Both the position numbers and the translations under genes were made by a program. From a virus (lineage: Duplodnaviria; Caudoviricetes), in IMG/VR virus record IMGVR_UViG_3300032272_000034, positions 1-40,766 of that record: a stretch of DNA of 40,766 nt; one strand, 5' to 3'. This document shows, one piece after another, positions 11,936-28,280 of the stretch. A model generated the notes under the pieces. It saw only the letters and a list, made by a program, of their open reading frames with translations, ran no database searches and was not told the origin of the DNA. The stretch's first letter is position 1. Each line of letters starts with the position of its first letter.

Positions 11936-11939
11936 AACA

Positions 11940-12242
11940 TTAAAGGGTTCTAGTATAAGTTATTTCACCATCTACATAATAATTCAATTCCTTGCCATTT
12001 CCAGCTACACTAAAAGTAGTTCCTTTTGGGTACATCTTTTTTAAGTCGCTTAAAGATTTAATTTTAATTTCATTGCCTTTTAAGTCCTTTAACGTTTCAC
12101 AACAACGTGTAACAGTAATTGCTTTTAATTTTCTTTCTAAAGACCTTACTTCTTGTCTTAGTTGGGTATTTTCATACCTCATTCGTTCGTAATCTTCTAG
12201 TTTTCTTTGGTTTTCTTCTGCTAAATATGTTAATTCGCTCAT
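11940..12242 (-). CDS. Cassette protein starting within attC-like loop
   Basis: ITVTRCC = translated hairpin arm. Confidence 0.7.
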   Translation of the reverse strand: MSELTYLAEENQRKLEDYERMRYENTQLRQEVRSLERKLKAITVTRCCETLKDLKGNEIKIKSLSDLKKMYPKGTTFSVAGNGKELNYYVDGEITYTRTL

Positions 12243-12306
12243 TGTATTTTTATTAAGTTATTTATAATTTCACGCAACAACGGTTACACAAATACGTTCT
12301 AAACAA

Positions 12307-12594
12307 TTATTGTTGGCTTGGTGGTTTTATAAATCGGTCACTAAAATACATGGTTTCTAGTCCGTAATCATCTAGCACTTTTGTATGCGTTCTGTCTTGG
12401 TATAGTTTTTTATAATACTTTCCTGCTGTTAAACCGTCTACATTACTATTTACACACAATAACTGTAGAGAACAACGGTTATAGTTAATATTTTCTAATT
12501 GCTCTTCTAAAAAGTCAATGTATTTTTCTTGGTCTGCTATTAACTGTATTTTCGTAGACTTGTTAATATAGTCTTTTCTATTAGGTCTTTTCAT
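12307..12594 (-). CDS. Cassette protein starting within attC-like loop
   Basis: INYNRCS = translated arm. Confidence 0.7.
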   Translation of the reverse strand: MKRPNRKDYINKSTKIQLIADQEKYIDFLEEQLENINYNRCSLQLLCVNSNVDGLTAGKYYKKLYQDRTHTKVLDDYGLETMYFSDRFIKPPSQQ

Positions 12595-12873
12595 TTTATC
12601 GCTTATTTATTAATTTATGTTTTAATCCACCACTACTAACCATAACCAAATACGCAGACGTTATGCCACAATTACTTTTTATTTAAGTATGTATCATATA
12701 CACAACATTTATTTAAGTTTTTTTTGCCTTTCTTAAAAATAGTACAGTATATAACACCAAATAAGATTAATGCTACATCTAGTTTTTGTTTACTATATTC
12801 AACATATTACTCAATATCGGTTAATTTGTGTATTATACTAAACATTACTGCACAAATCTTATTTGAATACGTT

Positions 12874-13173
12874 CTAAGTAATTAAATGGTTGTGATGGTA
12901 CTGTATGTATTTAAACAATACATCGTTATAACTATTTTCTATGTTCATATTTGAAACATATACATTAGGTCTAATTTCTTTAAAATACTCTTGTCTAAAC
13001 TCCTTAAATGTTAATTCATCTTCACTATTTAACTCCAGAGAACTACCTGTAAAATTAATAGCTACTTCTTCCCTTATTTCCTCAAGGGTCTGTATTGCTA
13101 TATTGCTTCCATTATAACCATCGTCTATTAACATTTGGTTAAGGTCTTTTAATTTACTTTCTAATTTACTCAT
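12874..13173 (-). CDS. Cassette protein starting within attC-like loop
   Basis: INFTGSS = translated arm. Confidence 0.7.
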   Translation of the reverse strand: MSKLESKLKDLNQMLIDDGYNGSNIAIQTLEEIREEVAINFTGSSLELNSEDELTFKEFRQEYFKEIRPNVYVSNMNIENSYNDVLFKYIQYHHNHLIT

Positions 13174-13251
13174 TGTTTCTTTATTTAGTTTATTGTTAAT
13201 TCACGCTACAAATCTTACAGTGTTTAGTTGTAAAACATATTGCTTAGTTTA

Positions 13252-13473
13252 TTATATGCTATGATGCCTATTGCAACTATCACAGTATTTACTATCTATT
13301 CTTTTTTCGCTTTTACATTCGCAAAACGATTTTACAACATCGTATAAACTTAATTGCTCTTTATGGTAATTACTTGCAAACTCTTTCATTGCATTTATTA
13401 TATGTCTATTAGCATCACCTATTTCAACATTATTTAAGTGCTTATTTAATATTCTTTGTGCTTTTATGTTCAT
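13252..13473 (-). CDS. Cassette protein with C-terminal CxC..CxxC
   Basis: QLSLYDV = translated arm. Confidence 0.7.
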   Translation of the reverse strand: MNIKAQRILNKHLNNVEIGDANRHIINAMKEFASNYHKEQLSLYDVVKSFCECKSEKRIDSKYCDSCNRHHSI

Positions 13474-13572
13474 TGTCTTTTTATTAATTTCTGTTATATT
13501 TTATCCGCAACTAAGCTTATACGTAATACGTTGTAAGTAATGCTTGTAAAAAAGGCCACCACTCTTATGTTT

Positions 13573-14097
13573 TCACTCAAACTCAATAGAATCTGAAACT
13601 TCATTACCCCAAACATCCCAATTTTCACCAGAAGTTCTTGCAAACATTTCTAATCTATCTACATTTGGAAACCAACTCTCAATCATATCTCTAACTTTCA
13701 GAGGTTTTTTACTATGTTTAGTTTTCTTTTCTTTTATAACACTACTAATTCTGTCTTTTGGTTTTGGAGGTGAAAATTTACCTTTAGTGCAAACCATTAA
13801 TATTTCGTGTTGGCCTCTAAACCAATAACCCATTCCAATAGTTTCCTTATCCCAAATGCAATGAGTTTTATATTTAAAACCCCAAGCCTTTATTAACTTA
13901 AAACTTTCTTCTAATTTTGGAGAAGTAGTCCACATATAAAGCACTGCGTTTTCTTTGGCTAAGTCTTTAACTGGTAAATCACACATTTCTTTAATTGTCA
14001 TTGTTGGGTATTGGTTTTCTATCTTTCTGCTATTGCTTTTGCTAAAGCTATATCTCCAAGCAGGGTCTGCATAAATCACATCATATTTCTTACTCAT
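13573..14097 (-). CDS. MT-A70 family adenine methyltransferase
   Basis: YDVIYADPAW, HSKKP, LEMFAR, WDVWGNE. Confidence 0.92.
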   Translation of the reverse strand: MSKKYDVIYADPAWRYSFSKSNSRKIENQYPTMTIKEMCDLPVKDLAKENAVLYMWTTSPKLEESFKLIKAWGFKYKTHCIWDKETIGMGYWFRGQHEILMVCTKGKFSPPKPKDRISSVIKEKKTKHSKKPLKVRDMIESWFPNVDRLEMFARTSGENWDVWGNEVSDSIEFE

Positions 14098-14286
14098 ACT
14101 TAATTTTATTTTTTATCAAAAATAATGGCCTTTTTCCCAATCACTACGTACAACACTGTATAAAATTAATTACTACTTTATTGTATATTTAAAAAGGCTT
14201 ATTACTTATATTAGTTATTTGTTTTACTTATTATTTTTTTGCTTGGCCACCGTAACTAATCTTATACGATTACGTTATAAACAATA

Positions 14287-14421
14287 CTATTTTTTGCCCT
14301 CTACACGTGCTAGGCTTATCAATAAGTCTTGTATGTAGTTCTTTAGGTCTTTATCTTCTTTTATGGCTAGTATCTTTAAAGGCTTAACGCAATCTTCTGG
14401 TATATCTATTAATTTTCTCAT
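14287..14421 (-). CDS. Ribbon-helix-helix-like small DNA-binding protein (44 aa)
   Basis: Manual translation MRKLIDIPEDCVKPLKILAIKEDKDLKNYIQDLL... Confidence 0.6.
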   Translation of the reverse strand: MRKLIDIPEDCVKPLKILAIKEDKDLKNYIQDLLISLARVEGKK

Positions 14422-14495
14422 TGAGCTATATTTTAGTTGTTTTTAGCTCATAACAAGAACATTCGTTAAAGTCAGTATCGTAACTTTCGTTGCAG

Positions 14496-14732
14496 TTATG
14501 GCAGTATATCAAACTCATTGTTTTCTTCTTTTTTTTTGTTGAAATTTAATAATCTTCTATTTAAATAATTAAGTCTATCCTGAGTCATCTTTCTTTTTTT
14601 TAGATAATTCCTCTCTAACTTTATTAAATCCATTTCTTTTAAATGTATTTCTTGTTCTATTTCATACCCTATAATTATAGTCCTGTATTCAATAGGTAAA
14701 TCGTTAAATTGTTTAGTGTAAGTTTTTTTCAT
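14496..14732 (-). CDS. Hypothetical coiled-coil protein
   Basis: ORF track. Confidence 0.6.
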   Translation of the reverse strand: MKKTYTKQFNDLPIEYRTIIIGYEIEQEIHLKEMDLIKLERNYLKKRKMTQDRLNYLNRRLLNFNKKKEENNEFDILP

Positions 14733-14734
14733 TA

Positions 14735-14869
14735 TTAATATAGTTTTTCGTTCAACGATTCTACTTTTTTACATAATTTACATTGTTCAATACAAGGGTT
14801 ATTATTATATGGACCATCATCTTGGTTACAATAAAAATAAAACGAAGTATCATTTTCTGCTTCACTCAT
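14735..14869 (-). CDS. Small Cys-rich protein (44 aa, C..C.EQC..C)
   Basis: Manual translation, abuts both neighbours. Confidence 0.5.
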   Translation of the reverse strand: MSEAENDTSFYFYCNQDDGPYNNNPCIEQCKLCKKVESLNEKLY

Positions 14870-14871
14870 AA

Positions 14872-15201
14872 TTAAACACTAATTGATTTTATATTTTTAA
14901 TACTATTTAAAATTTCTTTTATTTTTAATAAACTTTCATTGTTTGGGTTATTCTTTATTTTTATGTTAAAATCCATTTTATCACTAAAAGTATATCCTTT
15001 AACTTCTTTAAATAAATCTTTAAAAGCTATTTGCTCTTTAGAAAGAAAATCTTTGCAATGGTAAAAATTCAAATAACTTAATGTATCTCCATTAGTTAAT
15101 ATAATTTTAAAAGTAATCTTATCTCTTTTTTTAGTAGGAACTAAAGCTACTTTAATTTCAAATCCGTTTTGTATTTTATTGTAAATTTCTTGAGTTGTCA
15201 T
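14872..15201 (-). CDS. Hypothetical protein
   Basis: ORF track. Confidence 0.6.
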   Translation of the reverse strand: MTTQEIYNKIQNGFEIKVALVPTKKRDKITFKIILTNGDTLSYLNFYHCKDFLSKEQIAFKDLFKEVKGYTFSDKMDFNIKIKNNPNNESLLKIKEILNSIKNIKSISV

Positions 15202-15225
15202 AATATAGTTTTTAAAGGTTTGTTT

Positions 15226-15477
15226 CTAACTTCTATTCAAAGATACATTATATGTATCTACCATAAACTTATCTTCATAAAGGTAAACGTCTTTCCAATT
15301 TTCTTCTTGCCATTTCCTAAAAAGTAACAGTTCACGTTGTTGGTTAACATCGGTTAAAGTTAATTGCTTAGCTTTTGCATAATCTTCAATAGCTTTGTAT
15401 ATCTCGTTTATTTCTCTTTTACAATCTATTGTTAAACTAAAGTAGTTTTCATCTATAAATTCTTTTATTTCTTCCAT
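15226..15477 (-). CDS. Cassette protein starting within attC-like loop
   Basis: QLTLTDV = translated arm. Confidence 0.7.
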   Translation of the reverse strand: MEEIKEFIDENYFSLTIDCKREINEIYKAIEDYAKAKQLTLTDVNQQRELLLFRKWQEENWKDVYLYEDKFMVDTYNVSLNRS

Positions 15478-15541
15478 TTTTATTTATTTAATTTTGTTCA
15501 TAATTTACGCAACTAACCTTAACCACATACGTTCTAAGTAA

Positions 15542-15805
15542 TTAATTAACCTTTTTAATTAAGTCATCAGCAACTTTGTCAAATTTGCAATTATTTAAGT
15601 CAACCATATTATTGTGGTCTAGGCTTTCTAATTGGTTAATTAACAATTCCCTTTGACTGCCAACATCGGGTATAGATAATTGCTTTACATATTCCTCGTT
15701 TATTAAGGTTAGTGTGTCTACACAATTTTCTATAACATCTTTATCGTGCTGCTCTTTAGGTAAGATGTATTTTACCATTATTCTTAACTCTTCTTTTAAG
15801 TCCAT
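15542..15805 (-). CDS. Cassette protein starting within attC-like loop
   Basis: QLSIPDV = translated arm. Confidence 0.7.
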   Translation of the reverse strand: MDLKEELRIMVKYILPKEQHDKDVIENCVDTLTLINEEYVKQLSIPDVGSQRELLINQLESLDHNNMVDLNNCKFDKVADDLIKKVN

Positions 15806-15864
15806 ATTTACTATGTTTTGTTATTAATTCACACAACTAATACTATGCCTTTTCGTTCAATATT

Positions 15865-15872
15865 CAAATATA
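15865..15872 (-). promoter_or_regulatory. Possible Bacteroidota -7 box (TATATTTG) pointing into array A
   Basis: Matches TAnnTTTG; no clear -33 box. Confidence 0.4.
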
Positions 15873-15901
15873 ACAATAATACCCTTTAGAATCATTCTAA
15901 A

Positions 15902-16924
15902 TTAGAAGTCTACTTGTTTAGGAAAAGCTTCGTTTAATGTTGGTGTTGGGAGTTCTTCTCTTTCTTTAAGTTCTTTTTTTTCTCTTTTACCTAATATCTC
16001 GTATTTATCCACCAAATATCCTATAATGTCATTTTCTTTAAATTGAGGGGTTTCCATCATAAAAACATTTATCTTAGTTGGCTGCCATTCTAATATTATA
16101 GGGTTTTCAGTTGTTGTTTGATTACCTCCTGTGTGCTTATTCCTTACATGCTCTACTCTTATCTGGTTTAAACTAGAGCCACTTTCTCTATGTATAGCGC
16201 AAGTGTTGTGTGCTTTATTTAAAAACCATCCACCTTCAGCTTGGTAACTACTAACAGCTCCCTCCTGCCTTTGACCACTCATGTTAGGATGCTGTGTTAT
16301 ATGCACCGAGCAAACATCTTTAGTGAACTTTAACAATTCCAAACTAGCAGCAACCCCGTCTGCGTAACCATTTCCAGTATCTTGCCATCCATTTTTAAAT
16401 GAGTTTATCGGGTCTAATAACATACCATGCACATCAACACCGTCATTTATCAACCCTTTAGCTACTTCTGTTGCTGTTTTAATGTCATCTACTTTTATAA
16501 ATATAAAATGCTTATCAAGCCATTGCTCCGCTTTCTTAAATAATTCTGGATTAGTTTTTTTTACATTATTTGCAAAATCCCCTAATATGTAATTCATTAA
16601 ATTTAACTTCATACTCCAAGAACTGTTCTCTTGGAACGCCACAACCCAAATAAGATTATTTGATATTGTGAATATTAGTTGTAGTATTTGATAAATTGTA
16701 GTTTTACCTTGACCTTTTTTTCCCGTTACTATATAAAATTCATTTCGTTTACATAAAAAGTGATTATCAATTACTGAAATAGTGCTTTTAAAACCATGTG
16801 GTATTTTACCAGTTAGATAGTCGTCTAAGTCTTGATTTATTTCATTTTTATTAATTATGTGTTTTTTGTAATCAAATACATCTTCTAATCCGTATTTCTT
16901 GCTTTTATCTATTCTTTCTATCAT
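15902..16924 (-). CDS. DnaB/RecA-fold replicative helicase
   Basis: Walker A GKKGQGKT, LLDP, QHP, VRNK; downstream of initiator. Confidence 0.75.
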   Translation of the reverse strand: MIERIDKSKKYGLEDVFDYKKHIINKNEINQDLDDYLTGKIPHGFKSTISVIDNHFLCKRNEFYIVTGKKGQGKTTIYQILQLIFTISNNLIWVVAFQENSSWSMKLNLMNYILGDFANNVKKTNPELFKKAEQWLDKHFIFIKVDDIKTATEVAKGLINDGVDVHGMLLDPINSFKNGWQDTGNGYADGVAASLELLKFTKDVCSVHITQHPNMSGQRQEGAVSSYQAEGGWFLNKAHNTCAIHRESGSSLNQIRVEHVRNKHTGGNQTTTENPIILEWQPTKINVFMMETPQFKENDIIGYLVDKYEILGKREKKELKEREELPTPTLNEAFPKQVDF

Positions 16925-16925
16925 A

Positions 16926-17390
16926 TTAGCTAAATCTATTTAAGCATTCGTTAATCATTGTATCTAATTGCTCTGTAACAACGTCCAAAGTGTATTTTTC
17001 CTCGAACTCCTTTAAATCTATTTGCAAGCCGTCTTCTTTAAACTTGTCGGTTAATTTAATAATTTGATTACTATGTAGTTCTTTATGAAAGGCTGTGTAA
17101 AAATTAGCCAAAGGCAAGTTTAAAATACTAGACAACTCCTTTTTAGGAATGCTATCGAATACAGTAGATTCGTAGTGTCTAATTCCTTGATTCAATAAAT
17201 ATATGTATAATTTACCGAATAATTGGTTATTTTTTATAGTTTCGCTTCTTTGTCTATTAACCCAATCTATTAAGCAATTAACACTATCTATGTCGTTCTC
17301 GTTAGGTTTAAATGATTTTTCAGAAGAAAACCTCCATGCAATTCTTTGAACCGCTTTATCTAAATCGTACTTACTAACTTTGTTTTTCAT
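16926..17390 (-). CDS. Hypothetical protein in replication module
   Basis: Between initiator and helicase. Confidence 0.65.
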   Translation of the reverse strand: MKNKVSKYDLDKAVQRIAWRFSSEKSFKPNENDIDSVNCLIDWVNRQRSETIKNNQLFGKLYIYLLNQGIRHYESTVFDSIPKKELSSILNLPLANFYTAFHKELHSNQIIKLTDKFKEDGLQIDLKEFEEKYTLDVVTEQLDTMINECLNRFS

Positions 17391-18136
17391 AATATTGATT
17401 CATAAGGATTAGGGTTATTATTAACTACTTTTTTTATATCCTGCCTATTAAACCAATTTGTAAAGTGTGTTTTATAGTCTTTTAAAGTGTTCTTTTGCTC
17501 GCTAGTTCTTATCAAATGATTATCAAAGTCTGTTAAATATTTTTTAACCGTGTCTAAATTAGATTTAGTTTGCATTGCTGTTATTTCAATGTAAGAAGAG
17601 TCTTTTAATATTTGATTCTTGAATGCAGTGTTATTTATAGAACTTTCTATTTCTTTAATTGAATCTATTAAGGTTATTTGTGTAGTATTTTTTAATATAT
17701 CTTCTTCTCTTATCTTATCTTCTCTTAATAGTTGAGGTTGTGTTGAACATGAATTTAACACTTGTTGATGTTGTGTTAAATTTATGTTACTTTCTTGTTG
17801 AAGTTTTTTTAATTTCCTAGCCTTAGCGGATGCTTTACCACCTCTACTTCTTAACTCACTTCTTTGTTCTCGTTCTTCTTTTTGTTCGTTTAAAAAACTA
17901 ATAACCACACTGCCTTTTTCTATCTTAATATGATTTTCTGATACAAGCAGGTCTATTTCTGTTTTAACTGTCTTAAATCTCTTATAGAGAAGCTTAGATT
18001 CTAGAATACACTCTCTACTCCAATAATAAGAACAAACATTTATAAAAACGCCTTGTATGTTGTAATCTTCTAATGTTATATCCCCGTCGTTCCACTCTGA
18101 GCAGAAAAATTTAAAGTAAGGTAAGTCTTTAGCCAT
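17387..18136 (-). CDS. Replication initiator-like protein
   Basis: LPYFKF..EW N-terminus, RSRGGKAS linker, HFTNW C-terminus. Confidence 0.7.
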   Translation of the reverse strand: MAKDLPYFKFFCSEWNDGDITLEDYNIQGVFINVCSYYWSRECILESKLLYKRFKTVKTEIDLLVSENHIKIEKGSVVISFLNEQKEEREQRSELRSRGGKASAKARKLKKLQQESNINLTQHQQVLNSCSTQPQLLREDKIREEDILKNTTQITLIDSIKEIESSINNTAFKNQILKDSSYIEITAMQTKSNLDTVKKYLTDFDNHLIRTSEQKNTLKDYKTHFTNWFNRQDIKKVVNNNPNPYESIL

Positions 18137-18419
18137 TAGAAACCTCCTTTCTTAAAACAACCTTAGCTTCTGTTAATTCCAAAATATCTAAAGCTCTATT
18201 GTAATCACTTGTGGTTTTCGCCCATAAGCCAAATGCTTTATTGCTTGGATAGCTAACACAGTTAAATTGAGTGTTTTCTTTTCGCTCAAAAATTTCGTAG
18301 TGTTTACTAGAGCCTGTATCAACTCTATATAAATAAGCGTGTTCTGTTTTTTTTATTTGGGTAAACTTAAACCCTTTAACCTGTCCCTTTCCATCAAATA
18401 CTTCTCTTAATTCTTTCAT
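18129..18419 (-). CDS. Hypothetical protein
   Basis: ORF track. Confidence 0.65.
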   Translation of the reverse strand: MKELREVFDGKGQVKGFKFTQIKKTEHAYLYRVDTGSSKHYEIFERKENTQFNCVSYPSNKAFGLWAKTTSDYNRALDILELTEAKVVLRKEVSNG

Positions 18420-18612
18420 TTTATTTATTGTTTTATTTAAAATAACTTATGTTGGCTAATGTCAAACTCTTCCCACTTAACAACTTGTTTCTTCTTAGAG
18501 TTAATTGTTTGTGATATTTCTGTTCTTTGGCTTTTTAGTAATTCAATCTATGTATTTAGAATATTGATTTTACTTTTAATCTCTTCTTGTGTGTATTTAG
18601 TTTCATCCATAA

Positions 18613-18909
18613 TTAATAATATTTAATTTCTGTTCTTATGTTCATTGTTTTAAAGTCATCCATAGTAGGGAATGAGTCTACTCTCTTAAAAGTAATAACC
18701 CTTAACCCATCTACGCTTCCGTCGTTATAATAAATACTTTCTTGATCGTAAGAATCGTTTTGGTAGTAGAAGCTCTTGAACCTTCTTAGCTTCTCAGCTT
18801 CAAAGTCTACATCTATTTTTAACTCCTTAAGTCTATCTAGGAATATTTTCTTTCTTTTAGATTCTAAATCACTTGTAATTTTGGAGATAATCTCTTTTTG
18901 GAAATCCAT
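18613..18909 (-). CDS. Hypothetical protein
   Basis: ORF track. Confidence 0.65.
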   Translation of the reverse strand: MDFQKEIISKITSDLESKRKKIFLDRLKELKIDVDFEAEKLRRFKSFYYQNDSYDQESIYYNDGSVDGLRVITFKRVDSFPTMDDFKTMNIRTEIKYY

Positions 18910-18913
18910 ATAT

Positions 18914-18995
18914 AAAAAAACCTATTCTAAAAGAGGTTGAGGACTCTTGAAGAATAGGAATTATAAAATGTTTTTACGGTAGCCTCAACTCTACA
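18914..18995 (-). promoter_or_regulatory. Structured leader: terminator-like hairpin whose loop is complementary to an upstream segment
   Basis: CCTATTCT..AAGAG/CTCTT..AGAATAGG followed by T7; GTTGAGG/CCTCAAC pairing. Confidence 0.55.
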
Positions 18996-19013
18996 AAGTA
19001 AATATACAAAAAA

Positions 19014-19361
19014 TTATTTAATAATCTCGTATTCTACTGATAAATTATTTATTTTAAAATTATCTTTTTTAATGTTTATCAAAGTGTCTAAATTATTAAA
19101 TAGTTCTTTATATTTCTTAAAGTAGGGTTTATTTAGATGGTGTATAAATTTTTGTTGAGCATAAGTTATAGAAGAGTGGTTATTGTAACCAAACAAATCA
19201 GCTAGTGTTTCATTGGTGGTTTCTTTAAAAGGTAGATGAAATTTACATAGTGTTATTGCTGCGAACTTTGTCATTACAATATCTCTTTTATTTGACTTAA
19301 CCGATAAGTTATTTATACCAGACTCAAACTCTGTTAATTGTTTTATGTATTTTGGTGTCAT
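19014..19361 (-). CDS. DnaA C-terminal-like HTH protein
   Basis: LADLFGYNNHSSITYA. Confidence 0.55.
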   Translation of the reverse strand: MTPKYIKQLTEFESGINNLSVKSNKRDIVMTKFAAITLCKFHLPFKETTNETLADLFGYNNHSSITYAQQKFIHHLNKPYFKKYKELFNNLDTLINIKKDNFKINNLSVEYEIIK

Positions 19362-19363
19362 AT

Positions 19364-19570
19364 TTAATTTTTTCTTATAAAGTTATATACTGTTTCTTTA
19401 TTGTGTACTGTTTTTATTATTTTATTACCTAAGAATATTATAAAAACATAAGTATTGTTAAGATCAGGCTTGTTTATTTTAAATATATTGAATTTATTAC
19501 CTCTAATAGATATTATCTCAATATAAGTGTTTACCCTGTGTTTGTATTTATGATATTCAGTTAAGTACAT
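19364..19570 (-). CDS. Hypothetical protein
   Basis: ORF track. Confidence 0.45.
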   Translation of the reverse strand: MYLTEYHKYKHRVNTYIEIISIRGNKFNIFKINKPDLNNTYVFIIFLGNKIIKTVHNKETVYNFIRKN

Positions 19571-19650
19571 TTTACTATCAATATCGTTAATGCCACTATC
19601 ACTATTAATGCGTTTCTAAGTGTTTTATTTAATTTAAAGTTGTACATCAT

Positions 19651-20208
19651 TTATTTTTTTAGTTCTTTTATTAATATATCGTATTTTAGCTTAATTGCTA
19701 TTAATTCCTTTTTAGTGTATTTATAGACTCTTTTATCTATACTATCCTCTTCTAGTGTTTCTACAAACTCTTTACCAAACCTTTTAACTAATCCTAATCT
19801 GTATTGAATTTCGTTACCGCCATCATATCTGTTACACTTTCTACATTGCTTATGGCAATTTCTAGGGTCAAATATTAAACCGCTAAATAATTCAGCTTTA
19901 AAATAATGACCGCCATCCCATAAATCTTTTACATACTCATTGCAACTAATGCAAGGTAGTTCTTTATCTCTTAATCTCACCCATAATTGATAGCTTTTTT
20001 TAGCATCCATTTCATACTGACCAAGAGTTTTAACTTTTTCTTTTAGAGATTTCTTACGTTGTTTCCATTCTTTAGATTCCTTTTCTTTTAACTTTACTTG
20101 TGATATTTCAAAACCACATTTAGTAGAACACCATTGCACTAAAGAATTGTATTGTTCGAATGAGTTATTGCAATCTTTATTTTTACATTTTTTTATTTTA
20201 GGTTTCAT
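19651..20208 (-). CDS. ninG: NinG/Rap-like recombination endonuclease
   Basis: RLRD..PCISC, DGGHY, NCHKQCRKCN. Confidence 0.9.
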   Translation of the reverse strand: MKPKIKKCKNKDCNNSFEQYNSLVQWCSTKCGFEISQVKLKEKESKEWKQRKKSLKEKVKTLGQYEMDAKKSYQLWVRLRDKELPCISCNEYVKDLWDGGHYFKAELFSGLIFDPRNCHKQCRKCNRYDGGNEIQYRLGLVKRFGKEFVETLEEDSIDKRVYKYTKKELIAIKLKYDILIKELKK

Positions 20209-20269
20209 GTAAAGATTATTAAGTTTTCTTTACACATTATTATAACGTGTAAAGATTATTGAGTTTTCT
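20208..20269. repeat. Two 22-bp direct repeats (TGTAAAGATTATTRAGTTTTCT), period 40
   Basis: 20208-20229 and 20248-20269, one mismatch. Confidence 0.85.
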
Positions 20270-20274
20270 ATATA

Positions 20275-20688
20275 TTACAAGTATTGTTTGTTATTACTTA
20301 TATGTTTATCTATGCTGTAATGGTTCTCTTTATATTCTTCTGAGGTCGGGATGTAACACCCTTGTTTGCTTGAATAGTTTCTAATCCATTCGATAAACTT
20401 ACTAAGTTCATCACTTAACATTTTTCTAGTAGCTTTAAGAAACACAATACCATTCTTTTCGTATCTCATAAATTCGCAATCTCTTTTTAGTAAAGTCTTA
20501 GCTTCTTCTATTGTATAGCCAAACTCAATAGCAAATAAGGTAATGCAAACATGTAAATAAGCATTGTGCTTAACACTTCTCTTTGCTTTAATCTCTTTTA
20601 GCTCAATCTTTTTTTGCGTATCTAATAGCTTGCTAAAATAAGTTTCTGCTTTCTTCTTATCTAATGAGTTGGTTAAGTCTAGTATCAT
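20275..20688 (-). CDS. NinB-like protein
   Basis: KRS..HNAYLH and T..M...E...FIE motifs; adjacent to ninG. Confidence 0.6.
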   Translation of the reverse strand: MILDLTNSLDKKKAETYFSKLLDTQKKIELKEIKAKRSVKHNAYLHVCITLFAIEFGYTIEEAKTLLKRDCEFMRYEKNGIVFLKATRKMLSDELSKFIEWIRNYSSKQGCYIPTSEEYKENHYSIDKHISNNKQYL

Positions 20689-20948
20689 TTGTATTTATGA
20701 TTATTTTTATTTATATAATCTTCTTTAGATTTTCTTCTTAGCTTTTCGTCTTTAACCATCTTTTTAAAAGTAGCATCCTCTTTATACATATTATCCGTAT
20801 CAATAACGGTTTTGTAACTTATTAAATTTGTGTTTTCTAATAAGTGGTTCTCGATTACATTAATTGACCTTCCCTTTACTTTAAAAGTAGCGTTAATCAT
20901 GTATTCTTGCTCTCTCATATCTATAAATAATTCTGAATTAGCTCCCAT
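20685..20948 (-). CDS. Hypothetical protein
   Basis: ORF track. Confidence 0.6.
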   Translation of the reverse strand: MGANSELFIDMREQEYMINATFKVKGRSINVIENHLLENTNLISYKTVIDTDNMYKEDATFKKMVKDEKLRRKSKEDYINKNNHKYK

Positions 20949-21586
20949 TACTTTAATGTTAGTTTAAGTTTATCTTTTAAAGAAGTCATTGCAGTTTGTT
21001 CAGTTCTTGTTAAAGAAGTGTAAACAGTTTGTAATTCGGTTAATGTTTTACAAGCGTTTAATTTCTCGCTAGGTGTTATTATCTTAGGTGCAAATTCTTT
21101 CTTAACCTCCTCTAAATATCTTACGTCATCAAACTTACCTAAAAATATGTCTGCATTAAAACCTAATTTAGAAAGCGCTTTTGTTAACGCATCAGTTTCT
21201 AATTTCTTAGCGTAGTTGTCATCTATTTTAGAATGTTTATTATCTGTAAATATTTTGATTGAGTTGGTTATTTCAAACTCTCCTTTAGGAAAGAAGAACG
21301 TAGCCTTAAAACCTACTAACCCTAAAACACTATTTATAACTTCTTTTGCTTTAGTGTTCCAATCAACTAAATTTAAAGTTATTGGTGTGTTAGTTATAGA
21401 GTAATCTAATTCTATATTCTTAAACCCCCACGTCTCACCATAACAACCAAATTGTTCAGTAGCATTAAGTATTTGAAATTGAGGTGATATAGAAGTAATA
21501 TTATTGCCACCTACTTTTGCTTTCTTAGTGTAGTTTGGATTAGTCTTTTCTACCTTATTCCAAAGTTCTAGGTTATTTGTTTCCAT
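20948..21586 (-). CDS. Rad52/Sak-like single-strand annealing protein
   Basis: FG..G..WG and KKLETDALTKALSKLGF motifs. Confidence 0.7.
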   Translation of the reverse strand: METNNLELWNKVEKTNPNYTKKAKVGGNNITSISPQFQILNATEQFGCYGETWGFKNIELDYSITNTPITLNLVDWNTKAKEVINSVLGLVGFKATFFFPKGEFEITNSIKIFTDNKHSKIDDNYAKKLETDALTKALSKLGFNADIFLGKFDDVRYLEEVKKEFAPKIITPSEKLNACKTLTELQTVYTSLTRTEQTAMTSLKDKLKLTLK

Positions 21587-21587
21587 T

Positions 21588-21833
21588 TTATTTATTGTTT
21601 ATAATTTGTGATTGATATATTTTATAATTTTTGTCTTGGTAATATCCGAAATTTTTAGCACTCTCACTAATTAAACGAGCAGTAATTTTAGTTTTTTTAA
21701 TACCGTCTTTAGTTTCTTTGTCGTAGATTAAGTTTTCACGCTCTATACTTGCTAAAGAATTTTGAATATCTACTTTACCATTGTGTTCTACTATCCATTT
21801 TTTACTCATGTTAAATCTGTTATTTCTTCGCAT
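21588..21833 (-). CDS. Hypothetical protein (start may be at MSKKW)
   Basis: ORF track. Confidence 0.55.
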   Translation of the reverse strand: MRRNNRFNMSKKWIVEHNGKVDIQNSLASIERENLIYDKETKDGIKKTKITARLISESAKNFGYYQDKNYKIYQSQIINNK

Positions 21834-21935
21834 TCGTGGTAATCTCCATCATCGTATTCAGCACCACACAAAGCGCATGAAACAATACCGTAGTGGTTTG
21901 ATGGGTTTCTAGGGTCGTTGTTAAACTCGTTCATG

Positions 21936-22367
21936 TTATTTGTTTTCGTGTATGTTTCCTGTTACTTCTAATATTTCCTCGGCATCTAACCAAATATTAT
22001 TATTTTCTAAACTACTTTGTATAGCTGAAAAAGGTATAAAGCTACTTATTGTTCTCTTGCCGTCGTGTTTTAAACCTCTAAAACCAAAGCATCCTTGATT
22101 AAAGCAAATCTTCATATTTACAGAGTCTCGGTACTTCATTCCTGTGTGGAACTTTATCACATCTCCTTCGTAAATCTCTTTACCGTTCTTATCTTTTAAA
22201 CCTGTGTATTGTTCTAATAAAAAGTTTTCAGAATTACCACAAGGGTTGTTGTTATTAGTTCCAGCAATAAGTCCTGTAGAGCCATCTATATAGCAATAAA
22301 CTTCTACATAATTATTGTATTCCTTTGTCTTTAAATTCCAAGCTCTAAATTTTATTTCTCTACTCAT
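21936..22367 (-). CDS. YopX family protein
   Basis: REIKFRAW, QYTGLKDKNGKEIYEGD, EVTGNIHEN. Confidence 0.93.
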   Translation of the reverse strand: MSREIKFRAWNLKTKEYNNYVEVYCYIDGSTGLIAGTNNNNPCGNSENFLLEQYTGLKDKNGKEIYEGDVIKFHTGMKYRDSVNMKICFNQGCFGFRGLKHDGKRTISSFIPFSAIQSSLENNNIWLDAEEILEVTGNIHENK

Positions 22368-22504
22368 TTTCTTTTGTTATTAGTTTCCAATTTCTAGGGT
22401 CTGTTTTTAATCCGTCTAATATAGTTAAAGCTATAACCATGTTTTTTGCTTTAATAATTAAGTTAGAGCCTTTATCTCTGTGTTTAAAGTTGTATTCTAT
22501 CATG

Positions 22505-22690
22505 TTAAAACCATCTTGAAGTTAGTACTCTGGTAAAATTACCATCTTTATATAGTATTAATTCGCTTTTTGAAGCATCTCTTAATGATATCCTAAAGTC
22601 CGTAGTGCTTAGGTGTTTAATTTCTTTATTTAAAGAAGATTCTATTAAGTCCTCTCTTTCTAATAATATAACTTTTTCTATTCTTATCAT
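22505..22690 (-). CDS. Hypothetical protein
   Basis: ORF track. Confidence 0.55.
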   Translation of the reverse strand: MIRIEKVILLEREDLIESSLNKEIKHLSTTDFRISLRDASKSELILYKDGNFTRVLTSRWF

Positions 22691-22955
22691 GGTAGTGGTT
22701 TATTAGTTACTGCGTTATCATAAGGAGATACACAAGTATCAATGTTTTTGTTTGCTTTGTAAGTTATAACAACATCTGTTAATAACCTAGTTTCTTCTTG
22801 CTTTTTCATCTTGTAAATATTTGAATTTATCATGGTAAAAGTTCATGTACCATTTAGTTTGTTTGTGTTCTAGTTTTAAATAATAATACTTAAATCCCAT
22901 TACTAAGAAAAGTATTAATAGCACTATAATGATTATTAGTTCTGCTTTCATAATA

Positions 22956-23474
22956 TTAGTCTATAATTGTTTTACCTAATTGTTTTTCTGCTTCTTCTTT
23001 TGTAATTGTTTCTATTATCGTTGCCCATTTACCATCGACAAACAAGTAAGTTCTCCATCCTGACTCGCAAGTAAATACCAAACTGCCTCTTTCAAATCTA
23101 AATGAAGATGCAATTACTCTAGTGTGATCACTATTATAAGGGGATACTACCTTAACCCCTTTTTTAAAACCTCTTTTCTTAGCCTCTTTTATTAAAGCTT
23201 CTTTTACTTCTTTGTCGGTGGCTGGTCTTACTACATCAGATAGATACCATACGTTTTTGATTCCATCAATACGATACACTCTAGGGTCTCCAGCGTTGTC
23301 AAAATCATAAATTTTAGATAATTCCATAGTTACATCACCCATAAAAACCCAATCATTTTTTTTATACTCAGTCTCTTTAAATAACTTTGGGAACTCTTTT
23401 TCTATTTTTGCTTTCCATTCAGAACAAGCTGCTGCGTGTCCATCTTTAATAAATTGTTTTCTTGATTCTTTCAT
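22956..23474 (-). CDS. Hypothetical phage protein
   Basis: RPATDKEV..ALIKEAKKRGF motif; strong ORF. Confidence 0.7.
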   Translation of the reverse strand: MKESRKQFIKDGHAAACSEWKAKIEKEFPKLFKETEYKKNDWVFMGDVTMELSKIYDFDNAGDPRVYRIDGIKNVWYLSDVVRPATDKEVKEALIKEAKKRGFKKGVKVVSPYNSDHTRVIASSFRFERGSLVFTCESGWRTYLFVDGKWATIIETITKEEAEKQLGKTIID

Positions 23475-23607
23475 AATATTGTTTTTAATGTTAAAATTTT
23501 CCTCTTACAGCCATTCTCAGAGAAGTAAACACAATTTAATTGTGGATGAAATTGTATAACTCATAAGCTTATGTAGCCAACAAACCATTTGTTATTTTGC
23601 TACTTTA

Positions 23608-23841
23608 CTATTGTTCTTTTAATTTTATTAATAAATCTCTTTGTATAGCTGCTTCCTCGTAATTCTCTGACTCAACAGCTCTATCTAATTCTCTTTGCGC
23701 TTTTTCTATTTGCTTATCAATACTTAAAGTATCTTTTACTTTAGTGCTGTTTTTTAATTTCTCGTTAAATCTATCCATGAAACTAATATAGTCTCTATGT
23801 CTTTGCAATTCTTTTCTTTCCTCGTATCCTTCTGGTGGCAT
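23608..23841 (-). CDS. UvrB/UvrC-motif protein
   Basis: LDRAVESENYEEAAIQRD. Confidence 0.8.
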   Translation of the reverse strand: MPPEGYEERKELQRHRDYISFMDRFNEKLKNSTKVKDTLSIDKQIEKAQRELDRAVESENYEEAAIQRDLLIKLKEQ

Positions 23842-23883
23842 ATCTTTTGTTTTTAATTATACACCAAAGATGGTGTTTATTGT

Positions 23884-24063
23884 TTATATTGTTATAAATT
23901 CTCTTTCTACATCATATCCAAATACACTTACAAAAACTAAAGAAGAACAAAAAACTATATTCTCTCTAATCCCTGTTTCTTTATCTTTCTTTCCAGAAGT
24001 AAATCCTAATTCTCTACTACTTACTTTACTAGATTGTTCTTTTGTTAGTTTTACGTATCTCAT
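23884..24063 (-). CDS. Small hypothetical protein (59 aa, MRYVKLTKEQ...)
   Basis: Manual translation; directly downstream of leftward promoter. Confidence 0.6.
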   Translation of the reverse strand: MRYVKLTKEQSSKVSSRELGFTSGKKDKETGIRENIVFCSSLVFVSVFGYDVEREFITI

Positions 24064-24093
24064 GATATTTTTGTTTTAGTTATTAACTGAGTT

Positions 24094-24101
24094 CAAATCT
24101 A
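24094..24101 (-). promoter_or_regulatory. Leftward Bacteroidota -7 box TAGATTTG
   Basis: TAnnTTTG consensus at the strand switch. Confidence 0.55.
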
Positions 24102-24187
24102 CAAATACTTTTTAGATAATTAACTATAAAATGTAAAAAAAGTGCGTTTTTGTGTTTATTTATAATGATTATAAATATCGTAAATAG

Positions 24188-24218
24188 TTTGTTTATTGGT
24201 TAAATTGTGGTAGATTTG
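24188..24218 (+). promoter_or_regulatory. Rightward Bacteroidota primary-sigma promoter
   Basis: TTTG-N19-TAGATTTG, full consensus. Confidence 0.8.
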
Positions 24219-24245
24219 CTTAACTAACAATTAAAAACATATAAA

Positions 24246-24574
24246 ATGGGGCAGATAGATAAAATAACGAATTATAACATGGTTATTGAAAAAAACATAC
24301 ATATAAGTTTACAAAAAACTAAAAAAGTATACATATAGGTACAAACCGAACAAAGCATTCAAACATTGAGAATCCAGAATCAACTCCTTACGATGAGTCT
24401 TTTAGAGAAGTATATGATGCTGATATTCAGAATTGGAAAGAAGGTATTAAAAGGGGTAACTCTAATTTATTACACGACTTTTTCAATTCAAATAGTGATG
24501 CAAATAAATATCTTGACGCCTCTCAACAAGAGGATTTGGAGTTTAAATTCTCTAGATTCGTTATGAATAGGTAA
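24246..24574 (+). pseudogene. Frame-disrupted first rightward gene
   Basis: ATG frame stops after 30 codons; the -1 frame is open to 24574; imperfect ~31-bp tandem duplication at the break. Confidence 0.45.
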
Positions 24575-24591
24575 TATTTTAATAAAAACAG

Positions 24592-24612
24592 AAAGCCCCC
24601 TTTCAGGGCTTT
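24592..24612. terminator. Small hairpin AAAGCCC-CCTTTCA-GGGCTTT
   Basis: Inverted repeat between genes; short T tail. Confidence 0.4.
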
Positions 24613-24626
24613 CATAAAATAATAAA

Positions 24627-24869
24627 ATGGGGAATTATTTAGATGGTTACGAAAAAGAAGTTTGTGGACACTGCAATCTAAAAAGAACATCAGAAGGACA
24701 CGATGGTTGTATTGGTGCTTTGCTAAATGTAAAGAATGCTTGTTGTGGTCACGGGGAGGATAACATAGCTTATGTACAGTTAGATCATGATGATTATGAG
24801 AACGAGCCAAACAAGTTTAATATCAAAGGAAAAGATGCAATTAAGTATATAAAGGAAAATAAACTATAA
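24627..24869 (+). CDS. Cys/His-rich hypothetical protein
   Basis: CxxC, GHDGCIG, NACCGHG. Confidence 0.75.
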   Translation: MGNYLDGYEKEVCGHCNLKRTSEGHDGCIGALLNVKNACCGHGEDNIAYVQLDHDDYENEPNKFNIKGKDAIKYIKENKL

Positions 24870-25165
24870 TTAACATTTTTTCAACAGCACGAGCAAGAAC
24901 CCGTAGATATAGAATTTACTGAGATAAAAAACTTTAAAATAAAGGATATATTAGACAAGCGTATTGTATAAACTTTTATTACGCTCTAACGACGTATTGT
25001 ATAAGGTTAGTTGCGATAATAGAAGCAGAAACTTAGTAAATAAAACAGATAATTAATAATAGAAAATAACCCTTTAGAAAAACGGAAATTAGCAATTAAC
25101 TTTATACGTTGTTGTGCGCTGTTATTTTAAAAAGCCCGTTATTTTTGCAAAAAATAAAACCCGAT

Positions 25166-25912
25166 ATGATTGACATAAGATTAAGCGATAATTTAGAATT
25201 AATGGCAGAAATGCAAGATAACACAGTTGATTTAATTTACTGCGATATACTTTACGGAACAGGCAGGAAGTTTGATGATTACCAAGATTTAAAACCTAAA
25301 AGAGAATTGATTGAAGAGCATTACATACCAAGAGTTAAGGAAATGCACCGTATTTTAAAAGATACTGGAAGTATTTATTTACAAATGGACACTAAAATAA
25401 ATCATTGGATGAGATGTGTTTTAGATGATATTTTTGGATATAATAGATTTTTAAATGAAGTTGTTTGGTGTTATAGATGGGGGAGTAGACATAAAAATAA
25501 GTGGAACTCTAAGCACGATATTATATTATTGTACTCTAAAAGTAAAAAGTGGACTTTTAATGCGGATGAAGTTAGAGAAGAGTATGCTAAAAATAGTGCA
25601 ATGACTAAAAATAAAAAATACAACAAATCTTATAATGAAAAAGGAGCATTACCAAGAGATATTATAAATTTAGAAATTATAAACTCTATGAGTACAGAAA
25701 AAACGGGTTACAATACACAAAAACCTAAAAAATTAATTGAAAAACTAATAAAAGCAAGTAGCAACGAAGGAGATTTAGTTGCAGACTTTTACGCTGGTAG
25801 TTTTACAACTGCGGAAGTTTGCAAAGATTTAAACCGTAATTTTATAGGGTGTGATATTTCCGAAAAAGCTGTAAAGATTGGACGTGCAAGAGTTAATTCC
25901 CACGTAATATGA
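25166..25912 (+). CDS. N4-cytosine/N6-adenine DNA methyltransferase (beta-type)
   Basis: DLIYCDILY, TQKP, VADFYAGS; start revised to ATG 25166. Confidence 0.88.
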   Translation: MIDIRLSDNLELMAEMQDNTVDLIYCDILYGTGRKFDDYQDLKPKRELIEEHYIPRVKEMHRILKDTGSIYLQMDTKINHWMRCVLDDIFGYNRFLNEVVWCYRWGSRHKNKWNSKHDIILLYSKSKKWTFNADEVREEYAKNSAMTKNKKYNKSYNEKGALPRDIINLEIINSMSTEKTGYNTQKPKKLIEKLIKASSNEGDLVADFYAGSFTTAEVCKDLNRNFIGCDISEKAVKIGRARVNSHVI

Positions 25913-25996
25913 CCACAATAATGGCGGGCTTTTTACAATAATGGCGCACAACGTTAAAGCTATGCTTAGTGCGATTAACTTAAAACAAATATTATT

Positions 25997-26296
25997 ATGA
26001 AAACAGAAGAAATAGCACAATGGGTAATAGATAACAGATACTCTAAAAGTGAAAACAACAAAGTAAGTGATAGTGAAATGTACTACACTTTAATTGATAA
26101 GATAAATGAAGCATTAAGTATAGGTAGTGTTACCCCTCGTTATTTTTATGTAGTAGAAAAAAACTATGGAGAAGATTTAGAACAACTAAGTATAGGTTTA
26201 GAAACACTTGAACAAGCTAAAACTTTTAAGGATAGCGATTACCACAAAAAGAGAAACCCAAATGCTTTTATAGTGTGTACTATTAATGAGGGGTAA
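25997..26296 (+). CDS. Cassette protein starting within attC-like loop
   Basis: ALSIGSV = arm; stop TAA lies in the next TAAC core. Confidence 0.7.
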   Translation: MKTEEIAQWVIDNRYSKSENNKVSDSEMYYTLIDKINEALSIGSVTPRYFYVVEKNYGEDLEQLSIGLETLEQAKTFKDSDYHKKRNPNAFIVCTINEG

Positions 26297-26344
26297 CGTA
26301 TTGTGTAACCGAAGTATTGAATAAATTAAAACAAATAGATAAAA

Positions 26345-26638
26345 ATGAATAAAAAAGAAAAAGAGATAACTCTTGTTAATATGTTAAATTGTTATATTAA
26401 TGCGACAAATTTAACAAATAAACAAATAGAAGAAAGCGAAAAGTTTGTAGGTGAACTATTAGAAAATATTTCTGTTACACGTTGTTGTACGGAGTTAAAA
26501 GATAAAAAAGCACCTACTTTTGAGCAATGGAAAAAAGATAATTTTACATCTGAAATAAATATACATAAGTGTTTAAAGAATGGTAGAACTTGGGGAAGTA
26601 CTGAAATTTATAGTTTATACAATTGGCTGTACAAATAA
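26345..26638 (+). CDS. Cassette protein starting within attC-like loop
   Basis: ISVTRCC = arm. Confidence 0.7.
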   Translation: MNKKEKEITLVNMLNCYINATNLTNKQIEESEKFVGELLENISVTRCCTELKDKKAPTFEQWKKDNFTSEINIHKCLKNGRTWGSTEIYSLYNWLYK

Positions 26639-26709
26639 CTTTTAATTACTTACAACGTATTTGTGTAAGCGTTTTTGCGTGAATAATAACAAAACTAAAT
26701 AGATAAGAA

Positions 26710-27042
26710 ATGAAAAAAATTGAACAATATATTAAAGAAGAAATGAAAGATTGCCCTTTTACACAAGAGCAAGAAGATAAACTATTAATTGGTTTAACTA
26801 AGTTTTTAGATGACTTAGAAACCGAGCAATTACGTTTAAACGGAGTTGGGCGAAGTTTTATTCACGAACTTATCCAAAAAGAAAACGTACTAAAAACTAA
26901 ATTAAGTGAGAATTTAGACCTTTATAAAGAACGAAATAATATGGTTGAATACGATAAAACATTTAGCCAATGGAATAAGTGTAATTTAGTTTTATGGGAC
27001 TTAAAAGACATACTTTGTAGAATGGGCGAAGACATTGATTAA
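26710..27042 (+). CDS. Cassette protein starting within attC-like loop
   Basis: QLRLNGV = arm. Confidence 0.7.
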   Translation: MKKIEQYIKEEMKDCPFTQEQEDKLLIGLTKFLDDLETEQLRLNGVGRSFIHELIQKENVLKTKLSENLDLYKERNNMVEYDKTFSQWNKCNLVLWDLKDILCRMGEDID

Positions 27043-27103
27043 AATTACGCCCAACGTATTGCGGGTATGATTTGATTTTTAACGAGTAAATAAAATATAA
27101 ACA

Positions 27104-27430
27104 ATGAAAGAAGTAGAAAGAATTTTTAGAGCTGTATTTGGTGTTACAGTAGAAGATACACCAGAATTAAATAATGAGCAAAAGGGTATCATAGAGTATA
27201 TGGAGAACTATAAAGAGAATGAAGTTAAAAAATTAATTATACCCGATGTTAGCAAATGGCAATGGTTAGCTAATACTAAACCTAAGTTAGAAAATAAAAT
27301 ATACAACGTTTTAGATAAACACGGAAAAGAAGGTAAACTTATATTTGGATGTAGTGGATTTATGAATGAACCTTATTCTTTTTTTGATAGTGACTTTATA
27401 AAAGGTAGTGATGTAATTGCTTTTTGCTAA
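27104..27430 (+). CDS. Cassette protein starting within attC-like loop
   Basis: KLIIPDV = arm; stop lies in TAAC core. Confidence 0.7.
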   Translation: MKEVERIFRAVFGVTVEDTPELNNEQKGIIEYMENYKENEVKKLIIPDVSKWQWLANTKPKLENKIYNVLDKHGKEGKLIFGCSGFMNEPYSFFDSDFIKGSDVIAFC

Positions 27431-27520
27431 CGAATAGTATATGAAGCGTTTTGAGGAACGAAAAATGATTTTATATACCGTGTTATATACTGGCACGGTT
27501 TAATTAGTAAAAACTTAATT

Positions 27521-27979
27521 ATGAAATACGATAGCAAAGCAGATACTCTACTGCACATTAAAAGAGTAAATCAATTAATGACAGAAGCAGCAAGTGAATT
27601 GATTAGACGTGCCAATGTTCACGATAATTCAAAACTTGAAAGCCCCGAAAAGGAATTGTTTGACGAGTACACACCAAAGTTAAAAGATTGTACTTACGGA
27701 AGTGATGAATACAAAGAGTTTTTGAAGGGATTGAAAGTAGCCCTTGACCATCATTACGAAAATAACAGCCACCACCCTGAACATTACGAAAATGGCGTAA
27801 ATGGGTTTGACTTATTTGACTTAATAGAAATGTTCTTTGATTGGAAGGCGGCAACAGAACGACACGCTGACGGCAACATAATGAAGTCTATTGAGATAAA
27901 TAAAGGGCGGTTTGAATTATCTGAACAGATTTGCGATATTATGAGAAATACTGCTGTTCGTTTAGGATACGATAAGTAG
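27521..27979 (+). CDS. DUF5662-like HD-related protein
   Basis: HDNSK, HHYENNSHHPEH, EMFFDW. Confidence 0.8.
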   Translation: MKYDSKADTLLHIKRVNQLMTEAASELIRRANVHDNSKLESPEKELFDEYTPKLKDCTYGSDEYKEFLKGLKVALDHHYENNSHHPEHYENGVNGFDLFDLIEMFFDWKAATERHADGNIMKSIEINKGRFELSEQICDIMRNTAVRLGYDK

Positions 27980-28046
27980 TGCTTGTATATAACGTATTTG
28001 GTTAAGGTTAGTTGCGTGAATAATAGAAATAATTAAATAAATACAA

Positions 28047-28280
28047 ATGAAAGCAAATTTAAAGCAGTTAGAGGAAATGCAAAAAGAATTGTTTAAACAG
28101 CAATGTGATTTAGATATACAGAAAGCAATGTTAAAACACTTTATAAAAAAGAAAGAAGACGAGTTATTAACTTTAACCGATGTTAGTGTGCCGTTGTGCC
28201 GATACATTCTTTGCGATAAAGAAGCTGATGGAGATGGTGAATTATGGTGTAAAGACCATGACCTTCAAGTAAATAGTTAG
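28047..28280 (+). CDS. Cassette protein with C-terminal Cys/His cluster
   Basis: LLTLTDV = arm. Confidence 0.7.
   Translation: MKANLKQLEEMQKELFKQQCDLDIQKAMLKHFIKKKEDELLTLTDVSVPLCRYILCDKEADGDGELWCKDHDLQVNS

Follow-up and report, generated by a model that had tools for sequence, protein, structure and literature searches.

How do eleven small phage genes come to start inside DNA hairpins that resemble the attC recombination sites of integrons, and to read on through one arm of the hairpin? The question is raised by the virus record IMGVR_UViG_3300032272_000034 (Caudoviricetes), a stretch of 40,766 nucleotides (nt) referred to here as the window. An earlier note, based on the sequence alone, described the open reading frames (ORFs) as compact coding cassettes and a possible route to de novo genes. 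Our analysis suggests another origin. The 11 genes probably specify two-part proteins, in which the cassette body supplies the tail and an attC-like hairpin, through its loop and right arm, the head. A tyrosine recombinase of the flavobacterial host likely cuts at either end of the hairpin, so moving whole genes and re-pairing their halves in frame.

A 127-nt direct terminal repeat marks a complete (100%) circular phage record of 40.6 kilobases (kb). The closest cultured matches to the array region are phages of Polaribacter, Cellulophaga and Tenacibaculum and the host is therefore likely to be a marine member of the Flavobacteriaceae. Sixteen attC-like sites are mapped in two arrays of eight, A on the minus strand (11919-15857) and B on the plus strand (24988-29228), and within each array all sites point in the same direction. 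Eleven are coding (182-198 nt), with the ORFs starting inside the hairpins just as the earlier note reported. The other five are non-coding (56-126 nt) and precede three methyltransferase genes, one DUF5662 gene and one empty body. Stem scanning of the two array regions, which were picked by eye, gives 12 sites, against a mean of 0.12 and a maximum of 1 in 100 dinucleotide shuffles, and none in the remaining 32,166 bases of the window. The phage carries at least two attC-like sites within 3 kb and no integrase, a search of the complete phage for a tyrosine recombinase giving zero PF00589 matches. This is the composition of a phage CALIN (cluster of attC sites lacking integron-integrases) as defined by Qi et al. 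2023.

Read along the coding strand a unit consists of AAC, a 5-7-nt spacer, a 16-base-pair (bp) left arm, an A-rich stretch, the ATG and some 35-40 loop codons, followed by the right arm, a 2-5-nt spacer, GTT and the body, which runs to the next AAC. Each ATG is placed between a left arm that starts with AAC and a complementary right arm that ends in GTT. The 40-48 codons first assigned to the loop do precede GTT (Table 1), but the final seven or so form the arm. GTT is a valine codon in seven ORFs (LTLTDV type) and begins one base into a codon in four (TRCC type). Arms pair at 15.3 of 16 positions with their own partner, compared to 12.2 with that of another site (133 sites), which supports the proposal that the arm is coding and that DNA structure imposes the recurrent peptide motif. 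The 16 paired columns of these coding sites, which were selected by the scanner, are ungapped and extrahelical bases near L'' are not seen. Irregularities are seen in two coding sites, namely weak pairing in 15662-15857 (arm energy 0.0 kcal/mol) and a longer left spacer in 12471-12662.

The proteins share the motif as first noted, but rather than being otherwise unrelated they appear to be head-tail chimeras whose halves recombine at the GTT of the arm. Comparison of 252 distinct coding-site proteins gives 130 homologous pairs, 68 alike in the tail only, 56 in the head only and 6 in both, so that 124 share a single half, with the caveat that exact duplicates were dropped beforehand, which lowers the last class, and that the phages are not independent samples. 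At the DNA level 51 of 64 same-body pairs carry different hairpins. ORF 28047 has 153 relatives; valine is at the joint in 114 of the 120 read, and 112 tails fall into 55 clusters. The 22 relatives of ORF 12307..12594 comprise seven that match in the tail only, ten with the same head on other tails (one of which begins alike) and five that have the head and no motif. The tail of ORF 26710..27042 is 79% like that of gp60 from Polaribacter phage P12002L and the heads are unrelated, while the tail of ORF 12874..13173 is common to gp51 of phage P12002S. Elsewhere, tails that are 94% identical occur on unrelated heads.

In 46 same-head pairs identity begins at the left AAC and falls to background directly after GTT, and the first mismatch past GTT, which is at the very first base in 20 of 42, is distributed as in random pairs. 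Among same-tail pairs, the nine informative cases all have their last arm mismatch no more than 5 nt from GTT. Given these bounds, both ends of the hairpin appear to serve as joints. Loci were fetched by arm patterns, which inflates arm identity and the counts of the valine frame; in 81 coding sites outside the search seeds the three frames at the joint are found 55, 26 and 0 times. A single frame is used by 27 of 30 tail clusters that have several heads.

Are the loop ORFs genes? A frame with its ATG in the loop that crosses GTT is present in 187 of 209 viral or metagenomic sites of 176-215 nt. The corresponding values for host sites are 0 of 17 in that size range and 4 of 257 at 110-135 nt. 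Viral sites of 110-135 nt also have a crossing ORF in 59 of 154 cases, with a shorter head (approximately 14-26 codons in the examples listed), and some are fused to whole methyltransferases. Adenine occupies position -12 in 93% and position -3 in 79% of starts (11 and 9, respectively, of the 11 in the window), and A at -3 is reported to promote initiation in Flavobacterium (PMC6847099). Stops cluster 1-25 nt ahead of the next AAC; ORF 25997..26296 ends in a TAA just before the C of the next site. Heads and tails are under purifying selection. The ratio of non-synonymous to synonymous substitution rates (dN/dS) is 0.21 both in heads (28 clusters, arm excluded) and in tails (20 clusters), using one pair per cluster. 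When pairs are instead selected on DNA identity, differences are still most frequent at the third codon position (57/28/105 and 65/39/106 for positions one to three), and alternative sense frames are open in 1 and 0 of 189 loops.

No named family in Pfam or PHROGs is matched by the 11 ORFs, one unnamed PHROG matching ORF 26710. A whole-protein search with ORF 26345 against viral contigs gave no relative and a search with a long left-arm pattern gave 0 matches. An AlphaFold2 model of ORF 28047 has one helix at residues 2-44 and a tail of low confidence (predicted template-modelling score 0.41). Tails are cysteine-rich (4.1% vs 1.1%) and a CxxC motif is found in 47 of 189.

Relatives of three window heads occur in genes that lack the hairpin or the motif. 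The head of ORF 12874..13173 is 75% identical over 36 residues to a 48-residue, hairpin-free gene of Cellulophaga phage phi19:1 (gp005), the head of ORF 28047 matches a hairpin-free ORF of 42 residues in Tenacibaculum phage JQ, and the five motif-free relatives of the ORF 12307..12594 head are P0139-P0143. The genes of this type with window heads are P0139-P0143, L494 1102-1248 and L003 35480-35608. Heads may have been captured from ordinary genes, or chimeras may escape to become such genes. The phi19:1 gene resembles a head plus the start of a tail minus the arm, and therefore fits the escape of a chimera. De novo genes would have no coding homologue outside the locus type and would be under weak selection; neither holds here. 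The dN/dS values of the two halves and the hairpin-free relatives of heads instead point to chimeric gene assembly, and the suggestion that the hairpins offer a route to de novo genes is not upheld.

Which strand recombines, and what moves? In 12 of 13 window units the start of a body is more complementary to its own end than to the upstream end, the other unit being a tie, and host body ends behave likewise (8.3 of 10 positions paired with their own compared to 3.7). For ORF 15226-15477 a matching body end was looked for by eye and none was seen. End complementarity, which the earlier note had used to judge orientation, is symmetric and was rejected as proof; host layout, wobble pairs and natural junctions serve as the reference. 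The reversed orientation itself stands, with the phage genes antisense to the host layout and their coding strand the bottom strand. Coding-strand G-T pairs outnumber A-C pairs by 23:0 in 12 window sites, 635:4 in host and 821:28 in viral sites, and in 15 of 16 window sites the coding strand gives the better-folding arms. In integrons the better-folding, purine-rich strand is the one that recombines, with crossover at AA|C (Nivina et al. 2016, PMC5027507). Whole-gene bodies in viral loci lie on the bottom strand in 38 of 40 cases.

The sister phages P12002L and P12002S are approximately 98-99% identical and differ in their arrays. By eye, six of seven junctions between them fall at a left AAC and the default mobile unit would therefore be a hairpin with its downstream body, that is, one whole gene. 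Matching of contigs from other sequencing runs to the window starts at the AAC of site 27429 and ends at the GTT of 28184. Where both neighbours of a same-body pair are known, six retain the upstream hairpin only and one the downstream hairpin only. No further junctions emerged from the gene tables of Danklef_1/5 (part of each record) and Nekkels_1/2 (first 50 kb), and host same-body pairs number just three, two of them with different hairpins, which is too few to be informative. The sister-phage junctions point to recombination at AA|C and, together with the AAC- and GTT-bounded inverted repeats and their excess over shuffled sequence, bear out the proposal that the sites are attC-like and mobile.

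The phage sites have counterparts in the host family. A left-arm pattern occurs in an estimated 3,400 prokaryotic genome stretches, nearly all of those among the matches listed being from Flavobacteriaceae, and of 121 Flavobacteriaceae genomes searched 73 have the motif, the control giving 0 matches. Genomes that have the recombinase carry the motif in 65 of 94 cases, and those that lack the enzyme in 8 of 27, by a hand count in which kinship is uncontrolled. Most host sites are 120-129 nt long (256 of 294) and 17 are 185-199 nt; the stem asymmetry is a 6- versus 3-nt spacer in 219 of the 294. Site lengths fall into classes of about 45-55, 84-91, 120-127 and 184-200 nt in hosts and phages alike, irrespective of loop sequence. 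Host sites are non-coding and space single genes on the opposite (top) strand in 103 of 104 cases.

Host arrays follow a co-oriented tyrosine recombinase of 370-376 residues. Of 35 recombinase loci, 25 have a site in host orientation no more than 1.5 kb downstream and none has one upstream; six of the ten loci without a site have less than 240 nt of flank. Past the recombinase, most of the 35 loci appear by eye to have a short inverted repeat and then G|TT. The enzyme scores 175-215 bits against TIGR02249, below the cut-off of 265, and has 19 residues where IntI4 (PDB code 2A3V) has 62, approximately 43 fewer at the IntI insertion. That insertion is described as not fully conserved in an integron-like subgroup (Smyshlyaev et al., PMC8138268). 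The host recombinase (L027 8258-9385; L452-L486) has about 100 extra N-terminal residues with no Pfam match at cut-off, a region that is a candidate substitute for the insertion in single-strand recognition. Since arrays of integron type accompany a sub-cut-off enzyme without the insertion, the host system behaves like an integron yet fails the IntI test.

These data suggest a mechanism. The hairpin would fold from single-stranded phage DNA during infection and the host recombinase would act on it in trans. Cutting would usually occur at AA|C on the coding strand, which folds better, and would excise or insert a hairpin with its body, a whole gene. A rarer cut on the other strand, at G|TT in the coding-strand reading, would remove a body and the next hairpin, so placing head k on tail k+1, and the excised circle could re-enter as the reciprocal chimera. 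Re-paired halves would be in frame when both use the same one of the two frames. Holding the loop at the host size class of about 190 nt would set heads at 40-48 codons, and the A-rich 5' part of the loop would provide a start of Bacteroidota type. Homologous recombination by the phage, acting between similar arms, is likely to mix the halves further. A broader formulation, whose chances we consider evenly balanced, is that flavobacterial phages co-opt a non-IntI, integron-like host recombinase and that both ends of the coding hairpin splice helical heads in frame to tails, giving a combinatorial assembler that mints proteins and is able to release ordinary genes. There is a realistic chance that this constitutes a distinct protein-shuffling system.

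Several points weigh against this interpretation, in addition to the sampling effects given above with the pair and frame counts. The link between recombinase and hairpin is one of genomic position. IntI1 failed to recombine P12002L_attC1, the one member of the family tested (PMC9892861). We infer translation of the loop ORFs from their sequence, and the roles proposed for their proteins are conjectural, none of the 11 reaching the cut-off of a Pfam family. One of the seven sister-phage junctions lies about 12 nt inside the left arm, and locus L488 has a head and right-arm motif with no detectable left arm. The same loop can occur with different, mutually matched arm pairs, and some arms are hybrid or mismatched; homologous recombination is therefore likely to be a second, contributing route.

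Could that route account for most of the chimeras? Whole cassettes would then move site-specifically at AA|C, with chimeras arising mainly through phage homologous recombination between right arms of about 20 nt or shared body starts. The phage does encode NinB, NinG and the single-strand binding protein SSB, P12002L has a hybrid left arm, arm pairs are mismatched or concertedly replaced, and P0082, a relative of ORF 28047, changes arm type mid-arm. There is little homology across the joint, however. Arm mismatches in the nine informative same-tail pairs extend, as they do in random pairs, to positions 2-5 nt ahead of GTT, and in same-head pairs the first mismatch after GTT is likewise placed as in random pairs. 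We regard this explanation as unlikely. It is very improbable that the ORFs are de novo or neutral frames opened by A-rich, stop-poor loops and riding on selfish cassettes. Known families are lacking, tails are short (median 40 residues) and very diverse, and a few chimeras stop within 4-9 residues, as that idea would allow. It was already weakened by the selection test, with the same low dN/dS in both halves; moreover the alternative sense frames are almost always closed, such ORFs are absent from host loops in this size range, and relatives of the heads exist without a hairpin. Least probable of all is that the hairpins are relics of old host cassettes that now control translation as RNA structures, recombination having ceased. 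Two degenerate sites in the window, and the isolate pairs Danklef_1/5 and Nekkels_1/2 with the same gene lists around their sites, would be compatible with this. Against it, the near-identical P12002L and P12002S are distinguished by whole units at AAC, highly similar tails are carried by unrelated heads, and 16-bp arms set 150 nt apart with fixed AAC and GTT ends and host-like sizes fit a DNA site. We favour recombinase-driven shuffling of heads and tails, probably supplemented by homologous exchange.

How does the arrangement compare with known systems? In shufflons and phage tail-fibre inversion (R64 Rci/PilV, Mu Gin) in-frame site-specific recombination joins an N-terminal part to alternative C-termini. 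Those systems invert double-stranded DNA beside one constant head using their own recombinase; here there are many heads and tails, hairpin sites in direct arrays and no phage recombinase, and all sites of an array face the same way rather than flanking invertible segments. With integron cassettes the present system shares imperfect inverted repeats ending in AAC and GTT, a probable AA|C crossover on the better-folding, purine-rich strand, complementary cassette ends, and host arrays that follow a tyrosine recombinase and a candidate attI-like site. Minor top-strand recombination is known in integrons (PMC5027507) and the G|TT route proposed here would be its equivalent. The differences are a recombinase co-oriented with the array and about 43 residues short in the IntI insertion region, a 16-bp stem that is paired throughout, with 6- versus 3-nt spacers and no extrahelical bases, sizes in classes of about 50, 87, 124 and 190 nt, and phage genes on the bottom strand that start in the loop and have their halves re-paired. 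The classical layout, a top-strand gene upstream of a non-coding attC, is met in hosts and reversed in viral loci. Co-oriented integrases have been described, in a paper whose main text does not contain 'Bacteroid' (Cury et al., PMC4889954), and the accessible part of the Natural History of Integrons merely lists Bacteroidota among integron-bearing phyla (PMC8618304).

CALINs of virulent phages were reported by Qi et al. 2023 (PMC9892861), who assigned two sites in 'divergent directions' to P12002L. The likeness is close, with integrase-less attC-like clusters and orphan methyltransferases, and their attC1 is a short member of the present site family. Their attC2 matches an array terminus by our reading, and our scanner gives 11 candidate sites in that genome rather than two. 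Coding sites and shuffling were not found in the accessible text of that report. Protein-coding attC sites have been engineered, with the proposal that modules could be shuffled in vivo (Nivina et al. 2020, PMC7439510); those are short-looped and IntI1-driven, whereas the sites here are natural and hold a whole protein head in the loop. With subscription papers outside the scope of the search, we found neither coding sites, nor half-shuffling, nor the host system described in print. If our interpretation is correct, nature has a counterpart of the 2020 engineering, in which a recombination site recognized by its structure doubles as coding sequence and shuffles protein modules. Such a system would provide a concrete source for many small orphan genes of marine Bacteroidota phages, and a widespread host system with a recombinase lacking the IntI insertion bears on the evolution of single-strand recombination. 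Cultured phage-host pairs exist, namely P12002L and P12002S on Polaribacter.

The arrays include three orphan methyltransferases and the likely use is therefore as an accessory kit for host adaptation and counter-defence, comprising these enzymes and small proteins with helical heads and variable, often cysteine-rich tails. The features are listed in Table 1.

Table 1. Features of arrays A and B in the window (aa, amino acids; head length is given as codons ahead of GTT).
Feature	Coordinates	Hairpin site	Strand	Length (aa)	Head (codons)	Frame at joint	Remarks
Array A terminus, 13-mer	11919..11931		+				Candidate attI-like target half-site; exact copy at array B end
ORF 11940	11940..12242	12101-12298	-	100	46	+1	
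ORF 12307	12307..12594	12471-12662	-	95	40	+1	Head and tail each seen with other partners
Non-coding site, then body	12753..12873		-				121-nt site; empty 93-nt body
ORF 12874	12874..13173	13041-13229	-	99	43	+1	
ORF 13252	13252..13473	13336-13532	-	73	45	Val	
MT-A70 methyltransferase	13573..14097	14152-14276	-				Whole-gene body behind non-coding site
ORF 15226	15226..15477	15346-15533	-	83	43	Val	
ORF 15542	15542..15805	15662-15857	-	87	47	Val	Degenerate site; body ends mismatched, 8/20
Non-coding site	24988..25113		+				126 nt; opens array B
N6/N4 methyltransferase	25166..25912		+				Whole-gene body; 37-nt complementary ends
ORF 25997	25997..26296	25950-26131	+	99	44	Val	
ORF 26345	26345..26638	26295-26486	+	97	46	+1	
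ORF 26710	26710..27042	26654-26847	+	110	45	Val	
ORF 27104	27104..27430	27053-27250	+	108	48	Val	
56-nt site and DUF5662 gene	27429..27979	27429-27484	+				Gene 27521-27979
ORF 28047	28047..28280	27991-28184	+	77	45	Val	
Non-coding site and D12-class adenine methyltransferase	28295..29176	28295-28417	+				123-nt site; gene 28475-29176
Array B terminus, second 13-mer copy	29216..29228		-				Exact copy

The identical 13-mer that terminates both arrays is present in two exact copies. Such terminal half-sites, at the downstream end of the reading direction, are candidate attI-like targets of the phage. Half-sites similar to the 13-mer close arrays in other phages (L216, L270, L192, L196 and L207), and by eye phage array termini resemble the host site just past the recombinase. 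A search of the window against Rfam gave 0 matches, and a scan for sigma-70 promoters found 23 compared to 30.4 expected by chance, a scan that is uninformative for this host group. The methyltransferase bodies at 25109-25950 and 28415-29218 have near-identical 37-nt complementary ends yet belong to different enzyme families. Array A is broken up by two ordinary ORFs (14496-15201); the whole of 14280-15225 is non-cassette, with a further short minus-strand ORF at approximately 14293-14422 that looks by eye like a small DNA-binding protein. Array B and the ORF upstream of it (window positions 24000-29200) run on the plus strand, in the opposite sense to the remainder of the genome, and the GC skew flips there.

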